The notes under the pieces: generated by a model
What the model saw: the letters and a program-made list of their open reading frames with translations, nothing else
Databases searched by the model: none
What the model was told of the DNA's origin: nothing
Source of the DNA: Planctomycetota bacterium
GTDB taxonomy: Bacteria > Planctomycetota > GCA-002687715 > CAIWVZ01
DNA length: 64,000 nucleotides
Direction of reading: 5' to 3'
NCBI GenBank assembly: GCA_044222185.1
Contig: JBGANV010000004.1
Coordinates: 96,001-160,000 of the forward strand
Shown here: positions 1-5,076 of the stretch, one piece after another
Layout: each line of letters begins with the position of its first letter
Position numbering within the stretch: position 1 is the stretch's first letter
Program-made: the position numbers and the translations under genes

Positions 1-471
1 GACGACCTCGGCGGGCTGGTGGGAACGCAGAACGAGTGCCGTGAGGGGAACAACGTGTTCGGCATCAACGGATGCGTGCCTGCCGTCGCTGCGAACTACG
101 GTGCGGGGTGGCCGGGGACGCTGGGCATCCCCACGCTCTCCGCGAACGTCGCACCCGCGCTCTGCCGGCAGATGGCGATCACGATCGGCAACTCGCGCGG
201 TGTCGCCACGCCCGCGGCGTTGCTCCTCGGGAGGCAGCCCGCGAGCGTCGCGTTCGGCATCGGCGGACTGGTCCTCGTCGACCCGTTCTCGCCGCTGACC
301 TCGATCCTCGAGTTCACGATGCCGGCGTCGGGCTCGGTCCTCTCGTTCCAGACTCCGGGGAACATCTTCCTCTGCGGTGAGACGTTCTACATGCAAGTGG
401 TGATGTTCGACCCGGGCGCGTCGCAGTCGTACGCGTTCACGCGCGGTCTGCAGTCGACGATCGGACTGTGA
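1..471 (+). CDS. 3' end of an exported protein, ending in the recurring YGxG...QxxxxDP...(S/T)xGL C-terminal domain (5' truncated by window edge)
   Basis: Frame open from base 1 to TGA at 469-471; YGAGWPG...FYMQVVMFDPGASQSYAFTRGLQSTIGL resembles the C-termini of 33809..36391 and 54373..57957. Confidence 0.8.
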   Translation, partial: DDLGGLVGTQNECREGNNVFGINGCVPAVAANYGAGWPGTLGIPTLSANVAPALCRQMAITIGNSRGVATPAALLLGRQPASVAFGIGGLVLVDPFSPLTSILEFTMPASGSVLSFQTPGNIFLCGETFYMQVVMFDPGASQSYAFTRGLQSTIGL

Positions 472-512: not shown

Positions 513-1808
513 CTACCGTGACGCCTTGGGGCGGAGGTAGCCCGGCGTGTCGTCGCGAGCGGCACGCGGGTGTAAACACTCGGCGGGACGTGGCGTCGTG
601 ACGAGTTCGAACGCGATGCCGAGGGGATAGTCTCCCGCGCGCGGTGCAACGACGCCGTTCGCGTCGTACGGCAACCCGAACGCCGTCCCCACCGCCAGCA
701 TGTCGAAACGAGTGATCGCCATCTTCGCGCGATCCACCTCGATGAAGCCGAGGATCGCGGGGTCGTAGGACTCGGGTTTTCCTCCTGTCGTTTCGGCGAG
801 GTGCGCGACGCCTTCCAAGCGCATCGTGAGCCGGTCCGCGCGCGCATCTTCCACCGTGAGCCGCAGGCGGATGGCAGCGGGCTGAGCCGTGGTGAACGCC
901 GTGTGCTCGGAGAACCCGCGATTGGGGTCGAGGTGGAAGCGCGCGAGGCGGAGGAGGAACGATTCAGGCACGGGGTAGGACTGTCCTGCTAGCGGCATGG
1001 CAGGGATCAGCGAGCGCCACTCGTTCAGCGGCACCCACATGAAGTCGTTGTGAGCTTCCGCATAGCGGTCGGCCTGCATCTGCGTGGTCTTGGGAACGAA
1101 GTCGCGCAGGGATGCGTATCGCCACCCGCTCGGCTCGCGCGTGGCGAGCTGGCGATTGAACACGCGCAGGACCAGGGCGCCCGCGGGCACGGCGAGAGCC
1201 GTGCGTTTGACGTCCTGCCGGCCTGTCGCGGCGACCATCACCGATCCCGCCAACCGTTCGGTCGGCGGCAGTTGGGCCCACTCGTTCAATGCGGCTTTCA
1301 GCGTCCAGTGGAGATCGGGCGCTGGGAACCGGGGCCGATTGAGGCGGACGCCGCTCGCGGTGACGACGCAGAGCGACCCCGACGCCGTACCGGTCACGCA
1401 ATCCGTCGCGCGGATGAACTCCGAGTCCTCATCCAGGAAGTCGTGGCGCTCGCGGCGCGCGTCGACTGCGACGGCGATGAACTGATCCTTGATGAGTTGA
1501 ACGGCGCTCTCGGTCCAGATCGCCGGCGCACGGCCGGCGGAAGCTGCGGCTCAACACGCTCCGATCGGGGGTCCACCGGCTCCGCCCCAGACCAGGATGG
1601 GTTTGCCCTCGGCTGCTGCCTGGCGGCGCGCCTCGGTGATGCTCAACTTCCAGTCGATCTGCCAGAAGCGCTGCTCATTCGGCTGCGCCCGGATCATGCG
1701 ATGGAGTCGATGGAAGTGTCGCGGCGAGATCGGCTCGGGATCGGTCTCACGCACCGGGAACGACGACACATGAACCAGCACGGCGAACAGGGGCAGCAGT
1801 CGGAACAT
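513..1808 (-). CDS. Candidate exported selenoprotein, 431 aa, Cys85-Sec86, N-terminal thioredoxin-like (SelN-like) domain plus uncharacterised C-terminal domain
   Basis: ATG at 1808 with GAAGGA RBS and signal-like MFRLLPLFAVLVHVSS; ORFs 1551..2027 and 513..1397 are in the same frame with one TGA (1551-1553) between them; read-through gives EARRQAAAEGKPILVWGGAGGPPIGAC-U-AAASAGRAPAIWTESAVQLIKDQFIAVAVD; SECIS-like hairpin follows. Confidence 0.8.
1521..1539 (-). promoter_or_regulatory. Putative bacterial SECIS element
   Basis: mRNA: UGA + 11 nt + stem CGCCGGC, loop CGUGC, stem GCCGGCG; G then U at loop positions 2-3. Confidence 0.7.
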
Positions 1809-2051
1809 CGAACATCCTTCGGAAGGTCGGAAATGAGCGCGCCGAGTGTACTCGCGCCCGAAATCTTGGCCATTCCTCGTCGCGGGGGTTCGCCGCGAAC
1901 CTCGCGGGTCGCCCTGCGGCGGCGGTCGTCGACGCTCGACCGGGTCAGGGGTTCGGACCGGGCGGAAGGCAGGGCTGTCGCGCAGCTCCGCGACTGGGTC
2001 GCAACGCCGGCGACCCGCGCGCACCACTCCGCGTGCCGAGGACTCTCCCGT

Positions 2052-3038
2052 TCAACCGCCCGCAAGCGCGGTGCGGTACCACTGGACCGTCCGGTTCAGT
2101 GCGTCGTCGACGGAGAACGCGTGTCTCCATCCGAGGGTCGTGCGGGCCTTCGTGCAGTCCAGGTACTGCGCGGGGATCTCGCCGGCGGTCTGGCCGAGGA
2201 TCTGCGGCGCCAGGTCGAGCCGTCCGCACGCGCGTTGGATCATGGCGACGAGGTCGAGCACCGAGAGCGGCGTCCCCGTGCCGAAGTTGAACGCCTGCCC
2301 CTGCAGGCCCAGGTCGACCAGTTTCTCGGCGAGGCAGAGATACGCGAGCACGGCGTCCTCGACGTAGAAGTAGTCGCGAATGAGCTTGCCGTCGCTGCGC
2401 ACGACCGGTCGCTCGCCGGCGAGCAGTGATCGGATCGTCCCCGGAACGATCCGGCTGAAGTTGAGATCACCGCCGCCATAAAGATTGCCGCACCGCGTGA
2501 TGGCGATGGGCATCTTGTAGGTCGTCGCGAACGAGATCGCGATGAGGTCGGCGCAGGACTTGGACACGTCGTAGGGGAACCGGCCCTGGAGCGGCGCGTC
2601 CTCGCGGTAGGGAAGGACGTCGTGGGAGCCGTAGGCCTTGTCCGATGACGCGATCACGATCCGCTTGACGAGGGGACCGCACGCGCGGCACGCATCGAGG
2701 AGCGTCCACGTGCCCTTCACGTTGGACTCGAACGTCGAGAGCAGCGAGCGATGCGCGGTGCCCACGATCGTCTGCGCCGCGAGGTGGAAGACGGTGTCGA
2801 TCTCGTACTCGTTGACGGCGCGCAGGCACGTCTCGTAGTCCTCGACGGCGCCGCGCACGACGTTGACTCGCTCGATCGCGCCCGATGTGATCAGTCGCGA
2901 GTTGGCCACGTCATCGCGGATGAGGCAGGTGATCGCAGCGCCGCGCTGGAGAAGCGCATCCACGAGCCACGACCCGAGAAGCCCCGTCCCTCCGGTGACG
3001 AGAACCGGGCGGTTCTTCCACGAGAATGTCGAGCTCAC
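2052..3038 (-). CDS. rfbG: CDP-glucose 4,6-dehydratase-like SDR enzyme
   Basis: GGTGLLG, SSDKAYG and PYDVSK motifs; GTG start at 3038 overlaps the rfbF stop (GTGA); the longer 534-aa ORF is an upstream extension artefact. Confidence 0.8.
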   Translation of the reverse strand: MSSTFSWKNRPVLVTGGTGLLGSWLVDALLQRGAAITCLIRDDVANSRLITSGAIERVNVVRGAVEDYETCLRAVNEYEIDTVFHLAAQTIVGTAHRSLLSTFESNVKGTWTLLDACRACGPLVKRIVIASSDKAYGSHDVLPYREDAPLQGRFPYDVSKSCADLIAISFATTYKMPIAITRCGNLYGGGDLNFSRIVPGTIRSLLAGERPVVRSDGKLIRDYFYVEDAVLAYLCLAEKLVDLGLQGQAFNFGTGTPLSVLDLVAMIQRACGRLDLAPQILGQTAGEIPAQYLDCTKARTTLGWRHAFSVDDALNRTVQWYRTALAGG

Positions 3039-3853
3039 GTCCACACCTTCCAGGGCGCGTTGCCCCGCTCCCACAGCGCGTTCAACGCCTGGGCCTCTTT
3101 GAACGTGTCCATGCACTGCCAGAAGCCCTTGTGCTCGAACAGTGCCATCTGGCGATCGCGCGCCAGTTTCTGGAACGGCTCGAGCTCGAGCGTGCACTCG
3201 GCGTCGAGGTAGTCGAACACCTTGCGATTGAACACGAAGAAGCCGCCGGAGGTGAAGTCGCTCATGAGCGGCTTCTCCTGGAAGTAGTCGACGACGCCGC
3301 CCTGCCCGACCTTGACGAGGCCATACTTCGAATGCGGGTGGAATCCCGTGAGCGTGGCGAGCTTGCCGTGGCGGTCGTGATAGGCCACGAGATCGTCGAG
3401 GTTCACGTCGGACAGTCCGTCGCAGTAGTTCGCGAGGAACGTCTCGTCGTGGATGTGATGGCGGACGCCGAAGAGGCGGCCGCCGGTTTGCGTGTTCTGG
3501 CCCGTGTCGACGAAGGTGATCTCCCAGTCCTCGATCGACGGATCGTGTGCGACGATGCCGCTGCCCGGCACACCGAGCTTGAGTGTGAAGTCCTTCATCA
3601 TCCAGTGGTAGTTGATGAAGTACTCCTTGATCATGTTGCCGCGATAGCCGAGGCACAGGACGAACTTCCGGTACCCGTAGTGGTCGTAGTGGCGCATCAG
3701 GTGCCAGAGCACCGGACGACCGCCGACCTCGACGAGAGCCTTGGGGCGGAACTCCGTCTCCTCCCGCATGCGGGTGCCTTGGCCGCCGCAGAGGATCACG
3801 ACCTTCTCCTGGCGTGTCGGCCGCCGATGGCTGCCCGGGGTGATCTGGCTCAC
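3035..3853 (-). CDS. rfbF: Glucose-1-phosphate cytidylyltransferase
   Basis: VVILCGGQGTRMREETEFRPKALVEVGG, FWQCMDT, APWKVW. Confidence 0.93.
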   Translation of the reverse strand: MSQITPGSHRRPTRQEKVVILCGGQGTRMREETEFRPKALVEVGGRPVLWHLMRHYDHYGYRKFVLCLGYRGNMIKEYFINYHWMMKDFTLKLGVPGSGIVAHDPSIEDWEITFVDTGQNTQTGGRLFGVRHHIHDETFLANYCDGLSDVNLDDLVAYHDRHGKLATLTGFHPHSKYGLVKVGQGGVVDYFQEKPLMSDFTSGGFFVFNRKVFDYLDAECTLELEPFQKLARDRQMALFEHKGFWQCMDTFKEAQALNALWERGNAPWKVWT

Positions 3854-5076
3854 GTGAGGATCTTGGGTTCGGGAATGGGGATCAGGAAGCGTCCGCCGGA
3901 TCGACGATACTCCGCCTCCTGCTGAACGATTTCATCGGTCAGGTTCCAAGGCAGGATCAAGGTGAAGTCGGGTCGGTCCGCGGCGAGCGTCCCGCCGGGT
4001 CTCACGGGCAGGTGCATTCCCGGTGTGAGCTTCCCGGCCTTCAGCGGATTGCGATCGACGGTGTATTCCACGAGATCGGTGCCGATGCCGCAGTAGTTGA
4101 GGAGCGTGTTGCCTTTGGCTGGCGCACCGTAGGCCGCGATCCGCTTGCCCTGACTGCGAAGCGAACGGAGCAGGGCGAGCAGCTGCTCCTTGTTCTGCGC
4201 GACCCGCCGGGCGAAGGCGTGGTAGGTCTCGGCGCGATCGAGGCCGCGTGCCCGCTCATCCACGATCATGGACGTGACGACGGGCCCGTGACCCGACCCG
4301 GCCCGCGCGAGGACTCGCACCGTGCCACCGTGAACTGCCACGTGCTGAACGTCGAAGATGGCGAGCCCCGCCCGTTCGAAGGCGTGAGCGAGGGCCAGCA
4401 CGGAGAAGTAGCTCAGGTGCTCGTGGTAGATCGTGTCGTACTCGAGCTTGTCGAGCATGGGCACCAGATAGGGCACTTCGATGCTGACCACGCCGTTCGG
4501 TTCGACGAGCGTTCGACACCCGCGAAGGAATCCGCCCAGATCCGGCACGTGCGCGAGGACGTTGTTGGCGCAGACGGCGCTCGCAGGCCCGTGGCGGCGG
4601 CGGATGTCGACGGCGGCGTCGGCGCCGAAGAAGACGTTCTCCGTCGGCACCCCGCGATCGGTCGCGATGCGCGCCAGGTTCGTCGCGGGTTCGATGCCGA
4701 GGACACGGACCCCGCGCTTCTGGAACGTCGCCAGAAGACTTCCGTCGTTGCTCGCGATGTCGACGACGAGGCTCGTGGGGCCGAGGCCGAATCGCGCGAC
4801 GTGGTGGTCTGCGAGCGCTTCATGGTGACGGGCCATCGTCGACGACGTGCCGGTCATGTACACGTAGTCGTGGAACAGGATCTCGGGATCGACGCGCTCG
4901 GAAAGCTGAACGAGAAAGCAGGTCTTGCAGAACACCAACTCGAGCGGGAAGCGGGCCTCGGGTTCGCTCGCGGCCTCGGGCCGGACGAACGAATTGGCGA
5001 GGGGCGTGGTGCCAAGCGACAGCACCAACTCGGCCCCGGGGGTGCCGCACGAGAGACATTTGACCACTGGCCGCAT
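3850..5076 (-). CDS. NDP-4-keto-6-deoxyhexose C-methyltransferase (SAM- and Zn-dependent)
   Basis: CLSCG, CKTCFLVQL, DIASNDG, IYHEHLSYF, AYGAPAKGNTLLNYCG, FLIPIP. Confidence 0.9.
   Translation of the reverse strand: MRPVVKCLSCGTPGAELVLSLGTTPLANSFVRPEAASEPEARFPLELVFCKTCFLVQLSERVDPEILFHDYVYMTGTSSTMARHHEALADHHVARFGLGPTSLVVDIASNDGSLLATFQKRGVRVLGIEPATNLARIATDRGVPTENVFFGADAAVDIRRRHGPASAVCANNVLAHVPDLGGFLRGCRTLVEPNGVVSIEVPYLVPMLDKLEYDTIYHEHLSYFSVLALAHAFERAGLAIFDVQHVAVHGGTVRVLARAGSGHGPVVTSMIVDERARGLDRAETYHAFARRVAQNKEQLLALLRSLRSQGKRIAAYGAPAKGNTLLNYCGIGTDLVEYTVDRNPLKAGKLTPGMHLPVRPGGTLAADRPDFTLILPWNLTDEIVQQEAEYRRSGGRFLIPIPEPKILT

Follow-up and report, generated by a model that had tools for sequence, protein, structure and literature searches.

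The window analyzed here, a 64,000-nucleotide stretch of contig JBGANV010000004.1 from a Planctomycetota bacterium, almost certainly contains at 1808-513 of its minus strand a single gene that is decoded with selenocysteine (Sec). The one in-frame TGA of this gene directly follows a Cys codon and, as the comparative evidence shows, the predicted event at UGA-86 is the insertion of Sec by SelB, directed by a hairpin located shortly after the codon. In its structure model, the protein adopts a divergent thioredoxin fold of the Thioredoxin_7/DsbH type, and the active-site helix begins with Sec. The family that it represents, planctomycete Cys-Sec proteins with a thioredoxin fold, is large and apparently undescribed and is characterized by a new partner domain and by sensor relatives. 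To the reading as a whole, namely, that the gene is Sec decoded and that its product is exported and works as a Cys-Sec oxidoreductase, we assign a probability of 0.85 or lower.

The recoded frame and its hairpin

An initial annotation of this DNA had proposed a hidden Cys-Sec selenoprotein, exported, split by gene callers, and related to animal selenoprotein N (SELENON, also SelN or SEPN1). The layout that it described is present in full on the minus strand: two open reading frames (ORFs) in the same frame, a single TGA (1551-1553) after a Cys codon, and 51 stop-free codons that separate this TGA from a downstream GTG (1397-1395). ORF calling with table 11 cuts the frame into 1551..2027 and 513..1397, both on the minus strand. 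When the TGA is read as Sec, the frame 1808-513 yields 431 residues with no further stop, and 345 codons are open after the TGA. The features of the gene are as follows; the hairpin among them is of the bacterial Sec insertion sequence (bSECIS) type.

513..1808, minus strand: whole coding sequence of the predicted selenoprotein; 431 codons, one of them an in-frame TGA decoded as Sec, followed by the TAG stop at 515-513
1808-1806, minus strand: start codon ATG
1749..1808, minus strand: signal-peptide-like N terminus, about residues 1 to 20, as judged from the sequence and its orthologs
1260..1727, minus strand: divergent thioredoxin-fold domain of the Thioredoxin_7/DsbH type, about residues 28 to 183
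1554..1556, minus strand: Cys85 codon TGT, likely the resolving partner of Sec, invariant in 21/21 orthologs
1551..1553, minus strand: Sec86 codon TGA, directly after the Cys85 codon
1521..1539, minus strand: bSECIS-type hairpin with a 7-bp stem (6 bp conserved) and the loop CGUGC, 11 nt after the UGA, assigned from structure, conservation, and compensatory changes
516..1196, minus strand: C-terminal beta-rich domain, about residues 205 to 431, of no known family, with a conserved motif and tail

After a spacer of 11 nt (1550-1540), the segments CGCCGGC (1539-1533) and GCCGGCG (1527-1521) enclose the loop CGUGC (1532-1528), forming a stem-loop that spans +12 to +30 relative to the UGA and has a G in its apical loop. 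This hairpin had been pointed out in the initial annotation, and its assignment to the bSECIS type is backed by conservation and compensatory changes. The 3′ flank of the TGA can be aligned across 21 orthologous genes (20 distinct sequences), in which 85% of the stem cells are paired, compared with 33 to 47% when the partner columns are slid by 1 to 3 positions. The stem reaches a covariation score of 0.292, versus 0.132 for shuffled alignments, and none of the 500 shuffles attained the observed value. At stem pair 24-36, the variants CG (8), GU (4), AU (3), GC (3), and UG (1) are found. Among the paralogs, 4 of 13 loci (L028, L033, L034, and L035) have a different 7-bp stem with the same 11-nt spacing and the loop CGUGC or CGGGC; in the other 9, the best hairpins differ in position or loop.

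The hairpin loop coincides with the CGN codon of the invariant Arg93, seven residues after Sec, and this Arg is also kept in relatives without the TGA. Judging from the alignments, the Arg93 codon seems to be constrained at the RNA and protein levels alike.

Conservation of the Cys-TGA pair and decoding of the TGA

A search of 5.8 billion clustered proteins returned 57 relatives, all 265 to 360 aa long and covering 60 to 76% of the query, and none of them (0/57) extends into the part before the TGA, as would be expected of a selenoprotein that gene callers split. All 20 relatives that were aligned start beyond residue 100 of the window protein. Since the database relatives all start after the TGA, gene callers everywhere stop at the same place, and the gene is, on this sequence evidence, systematically misannotated.

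In a six-frame search of 41 related genomes, 18 matches span residue 86, and 17 of these carry exactly one TGA. A match in G017 with two TGAs looks like a spurious alignment and was left out of the paralog comparison. Scanning one genome per species gave 22 loci, mostly from metagenome-assembled genomes labeled Gemmataceae, Planctomycetia, or Planctomycetota, with a few bins labeled otherwise. Four of them (L058 to L061) are C-terminal pieces only and were excluded from the TGA count; the 18 that include the N-terminal part all have Cys-TGA at the aligned column (18/18). Together with two orthologs from the six-frame search, this makes 20 full-length orthologs from other genomes, and the pair is present in every one (20/20). 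The 21 full-length ortholog translations align end to end, with 33 to 54% identity to the window protein, and Cys85, Sec86, Gly92, Arg93, and Trp98 are invariant among them. In these orthologs, the flanks of the site follow the pattern [AV]-C-U-[AT]-A.

A more distant group of paralogs has the Cys two residues before the TGA (C-x-U). At two loci, a tandem paralog of the same architecture, in which Cys-Arg replaces Cys-Sec, lies directly downstream of the Sec ortholog (L052:4116-5603 and L050:4326-4794); the Arg codon CGA differs from TGA by one base.

An exhaustive search with the profile among 1.84 billion representatives (50% identity) gave, forms without Sec included, 2298 matches at an E value of ≤1e-3, 536 of them at ≤1e-10. 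Within the best 150 of the 2298 matches, 85 are short proteins whose C terminus, mostly G-C-T or G-x-C, falls immediately ahead of the Sec column (in 72 cases exactly there), and 1 is a protein that starts after it. The column is occupied by Cys in 19 (e.g., P0060 and P0076), by Ser in 15, by Arg in 6, by Asp in 6, by Gly in 5, and by other residues in 13, one of which (P0067) has Trp. Homologs thus align across the TGA with either TGA or Cys at the site, as the initial annotation had anticipated.

The selenium machinery that the same annotation proposed to look for is present in the window genome (G000), where selB (330 bits), selA (487 bits), selD (371 bits), and tRNA-Sec (74.7 bits) all score above their cut-offs. 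On its own strand, selA is followed after about 80 nt by the tRNA-Sec gene (G000:C1:1631186-1632718; loci L009 and L012), and selB is found elsewhere on that contig, at 529551. When 151 genomes of the phylum were searched with the domain profile, the 66 best matches each contained exactly one TGA; the 67th match has no TGA and belongs to a genome without detected selA. All 41 genomes with a match at an E value of ≤1e-20 have selA (41/41), compared with 112 of the 151 overall, and no TGA-bearing member occurs in a selA-less genome among the matches listed, beside which there are 103 weaker ones. The phylum genomes are mutually related, so these co-occurrence counts describe a pattern and do not constitute a statistical test. 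Up to 12 family matches occur in one genome of the phylum, and the window genome has only one. Its selD gene, located on the window's contig outside the window (G000:C14:427704-428624, locus L010), holds one in-frame TGA; the selenophosphate synthetase of this genome is, as predicted from its sequence, a selenoprotein too.

These data bear on two other ways of reading the TGA. It could be a true stop, in which case the locus would consist of two genes or would represent a pseudogene or an assembly error; table-11 calling indeed yields two ORFs, and the databases contain only halves. We regard this as extremely improbable, given that the stretch of 51 codons from the TGA to the next start codon shows conservation at the protein level, that Cys-TGA persists in all 20 orthologs despite their divergence, that full-length Cys forms exist, and that both halves form a single thioredoxin domain in the structure model. 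A sequencing error, which the initial annotation had raised, is contradicted by the contigs of DNA runs X2, X3, and X4, from three independent studies, which cover the TGA and show no difference there. X2 differs from the window at 1359, 1371, 1377, and 1389, and X3 differs at 1542, where an A>T variant converts GCT to GCA and would be silent. DNA nearly identical to window positions 1300-1850 is found in activated-sludge, wastewater, and bioreactor metagenomes from 12 studies; a metatranscriptome contig (X12) covers 1569-1820 only, ending short of the TGA, and may result from DNA carry-over. On this evidence, sequencing error, pseudogene, and two-gene readings can be considered excluded for practical purposes. 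A reassigned code or near-cognate readthrough might also turn the TGA into a codon for Trp, Cys, or Gly, a possibility with which the Trp of P0067 would agree and to which we give only slightly more credit. Against it stand the invariable occurrence of a single TGA in each gene, at one fixed column, the hairpin conserved at SECIS distance, the restriction of TGA-bearing members, among the matches listed, to genomes with selA, and the fact that a TGA terminates the neighboring ORF 1..471.

Protein architecture and comparison with known families

The window protein starts with M-F-R and a hydrophobic run, and all 20 orthologs likewise start with one or more basic residues and a hydrophobic segment, several of which end in A-x-A. 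The N terminus would thus be a signal peptide of the general secretory pathway and looks cleavable, which is consistent with the export claimed in the initial annotation. The AlphaFold2 model of the whole protein, built from the 21-sequence alignment, has a predicted local distance difference test (pLDDT) score of 84.3 and a predicted template modeling (pTM) score of 0.85, with residues 10 to 20 below a pLDDT of 50; this whole-protein pTM suggests that the two domains pack together. In the model, helix 86-91 begins with Sec86 and is preceded by strand 71-76 and a 9-residue Gly/Pro-rich loop. That Sec would lie in a thioredoxin-fold domain, where the active-site helix begins, had been proposed beforehand and agrees with both the model and hhalign.

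The fold resembles members of the Thioredoxin_7/DsbH clan. Foldseek matches of the thioredoxin domain to the PDB have probabilities of 0.99 to 1.00 and E values of about 0.03, and neither the whole model nor the C-terminal model has a PDB match at an E value of ≤1e-3. At the sequence level, family members give subthreshold Pfam matches to Thioredoxin_7 in 20 of 31 cases (best E value, 1.8e-5) and to Thioredox_DsbH in 18 of 31. In the ESM Atlas, a natural Cys homolog retrieved Thioredoxin_7/DsbH clusters only, with scores of 0.76 to 0.79, which serve as leads only. Searches of PDB sequences with the protein and with the profile returned only chance matches (Timeless; E values of 0.2 to 0.3).

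Compared with this clan (Thioredoxin_7, PF13899, and Thioredox_DsbH, PF03190, comprising the DsbD-gamma-like, DsbH, AGR, and UAS folds), the window protein falls below both Pfam cut-offs. The CxxC active-site motif is absent: the motif is C-U, or C-x-U in the paralogs, and the second Cys position is occupied by Ala or Asn, and the partner Cys precedes the nucleophile instead of following it. When the protein is aligned by hhalign to a Thioredoxin_7 repeat protein, Cys85 falls on the Trp of W-C-G-P-C. Moreover, the Gly/Pro-rich loop precedes the site, and the domain is always joined to a beta-rich domain of about 230 aa, which the clan lacks.

This C-terminal domain, modeled alone with a pLDDT of 85.5, corresponds to the extra domain announced in the initial annotation, which had estimated it at about 290 aa. 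Its most conserved elements are R-[FY]-H-L-D-P-x-R-G and the tail P-R-G-A-R-D..Y-L; both recur in the paralogs, which are built in the same way throughout, from a signal peptide, a thioredoxin-like domain containing Sec, and the beta-rich domain. In the ESM Atlas, the C-terminal ORF obtained with table 11 matched unnamed planctomycete clusters only.

The two-domain module is also found at the C terminus of larger proteins. Among 20 long representatives scanned from the best 150, 5 begin with Pkinase (P0061, P0062, P0073, P0095, and P0151), 4 begin with Sigma70 r2/r4 (P0065, P0082, P0131, and P0184), and 11 contain FecR, as in anti-sigma factors (P0077 and ten others). In the fusion proteins examined, the site mostly lacks both Cys and Sec. 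Since the module occurs in Ser/Thr kinases and in sigma and FecR proteins, it probably also acts as an extracytoplasmic sensor domain that recognizes some extracytoplasmic ligand.

A vicinal Cys-Sec pair is known from mammalian thioredoxin reductase, whose C-terminal GCUG redox center can form an eight-membered selenenylsulfide ring. The chemistry proposed here is the same, but the GCUG of thioredoxin reductase belongs to the flexible C-terminal tail of a flavoenzyme and not to a site inside a thioredoxin fold, and the two proteins are unrelated by descent. In SELENON, too, Cys and Sec are adjacent (SCUG), and the pair would be its only special likeness to the window protein, where the C-U dipeptide has the flanks [AV]-C-U-[AT]-A and the paralogs have C-x-U. 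For SELENON, PMC7474598 describes a thioredoxin-like domain and a location outside the cytosol and reports that no SEPN1 structure has been solved; an EF-hand and an N-terminal membrane anchor are also described there and in PMC10650576. The window protein has no match to an EF-hand family (Pfam, E value of ≤1) and no type II membrane anchor, its N terminus resembling a cleavable signal peptide. The order of domains differs as well, with the thioredoxin domain placed N-terminally and followed by the beta-rich domain, and the SECIS lies within the coding sequence, as is bacterial, whereas that of SELENON lies in the 3′ untranslated region.

Closer in kind are the VPGUxxT family (NF041383/NF041382) and the Trx7/PDZ selenoprotein (NF041199), which are likewise bacterial thioredoxin-fold selenoproteins. 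Five of 31 family members weakly match these models (best E values of 5.9e-4 and 0.014), and the window protein itself matches neither. Both families are without the window-type C-terminal domain, the window protein has no counterpart of the PDZ domain, and the motifs given for them in Table 1 of PMC13188914 are VPGUxxT and CxxU, not C-U or C-x-U. This table, from a 2026 review, comprises 119 prokaryotic selenoprotein families, and none of those in the table fits the motif and architecture described here. NCBIfam release 20 contains no matching family at an E value of ≤1 for the whole protein or ≤0.1 for the domain. Full-text literature searches found no description of the family, which supplementary tables (e.g., S9 of PMC4807772, Peng et al. 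2016, deep-Sep) might list as hypothetical.

Proposed mechanism, competing explanations, and genomic setting

The comparative evidence shows that UGA-86 and the bSECIS hairpin in the mRNA lead SelB, bound to Sec-tRNA, to insert Sec instead of allowing termination. With Cys85 directly before it, Sec86 begins the active-site helix and takes the position that the attacking Cys has in CxxC. We propose that the selenolate of Sec86 could attack an oxidized or electrophilic periplasmic substrate, such as a disulfide, a sulfenate, or a peroxide, and Cys85 (or the Cys at position −2 in the paralogs) would resolve the adduct into a selenenylsulfide, vicinal in the case of Cys85. A periplasmic reductant would recycle the enzyme, and the C-terminal beta-rich domain may hold the substrate.

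Several observations weigh against this reading. The 71-nt fold of the single sequence has a z score of only −0.74, and 42 of 200 shuffles were equally or more stable; in a sequence this rich in G+C, the hairpin taken by itself is no proof. The two outermost positions of the stem fail to pair in 12 of 20 sequences, which reduces the conserved stem to 6 bp. The TGA is shared by descent among the relatives, and TGA counts are not independent events. Export was judged by eye. The Pfam scores for Thioredoxin_7, 13.4 bits for the whole protein and 17.8 bits for the domain, are below the cut-off of 27, and the hhalign alignment that puts Sec on the first Cys of W-C-G-P-C has a probability of only 55%. 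For the C-terminal domain, Pfam (in 28 members), Foldseek against the PDB, and the ESM Atlas gave no informative match. Gene neighborhoods of the orthologs are not conserved, and no common operon is seen across 15 loci. Finally, 45 relatives among the best 150 have neither Sec nor Cys at the site. Redox chemistry is therefore not something that the module always requires, and the Sec forms may have a binding rather than a catalytic role.

In the main functional alternative, the Cys-Sec pair would form a high-affinity site for a soft metal or metalloid (e.g., Hg, Cu, As, or Se) and the protein would be a periplasmic chaperone or sensor. We consider this unlikely: the sensor versions mostly have neither Cys nor Sec, so ligand recognition would be independent of the pair, Sec occupies the classic nucleophile position of the thioredoxin fold, and no metal-resistance genes were seen adjoining the 15 loci examined. 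Somewhat less likely still is the explanation favored in the initial annotation, that the domain is a specific bacterial relative of SELENON, nearer to it than to other thioredoxin folds, with a Cys-Sec pair derived from a common ancestor. The spaced pattern on which this proposal relied (A..A..e.K, a strand, the redox motif, a helix, and an F-I/V strand) can be aligned with a Thioredoxin_7 repeat protein of the ordinary kind as well and therefore marks the Thioredoxin_7/DsbH clan, not SelN. No SelN appears among the PDB sequence or fold matches, and the lack of an EF-hand and the order of the two domains, noted above, also speak against such kinship. Relatives of 560 to 700 aa in which the domain lies at about residues 300 to 430 are FecR or sigma-factor fusions and not SelN-like, and the use of C-x-U by paralogs means that the Cys spacing varies within the family. 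We retain the Cys-Sec oxidoreductase reading, with a fold of the Thioredoxin_7/DsbH type.

Beyond the window protein, we tentatively envisage, as a speculation with the odds against it, a phylum-wide, multicopy superfamily of extracytoplasmic Cys-Sec enzymes that only the Planctomycetota and their neighbors would have. Its free selenoproteins would destroy or transform an oxidant or electrophile, and the catalytically dead copies of the two-domain module, fused to Ser/Thr kinases or FecR-type anti-sigma factors, would sense the same compound, forming a selenium-dependent system of envelope defense and signaling built on the new beta-rich domain.

Bacterial selenoproteomes are compiled from known families, and an unrecognized family goes uncounted. 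The present family appears to be misannotated throughout, as a short N-terminal fragment and a "hypothetical protein" of about 320 aa. Its recognition would correct the annotation and increase the amount of selenium that the Planctomycetota of sludge, soil, and water are known to require. It would also add an unusual active-site design, with Cys before Sec at the thioredoxin nucleophile position. The family further points to a sensor module, new in kind, in the kinases and anti-sigma factors of planctomycetes. A link to SelN, if ever shown, would provide a tractable bacterial model for a disease protein.

Among the 15 loci, a PSCyt2/PSD1 (DUF1549/DUF1553) gene starts 40 to 50 nt downstream on the same strand in three (L043:4261-5865, L045:4267-6027, and L049:4302-6689). 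DUF1501, DUF1552, and FecR+PA14 genes each occur once; at L054, FecR+PA14 lies upstream and DUF1501 lies downstream. These families are very common in the phylum, and we draw no functional link to PSCyt2/PSD1, DUF1501, DUF1552, or FecR+PA14 neighbors. In the window, the genes upstream (2055-5076, minus strand) form a sugar-nucleotide run consisting of an NAD-dependent epimerase/dehydratase, a nucleotidyl transferase, and a C-methyltransferase, whose ORFs overlap, as called, by a few to about 115 bases.

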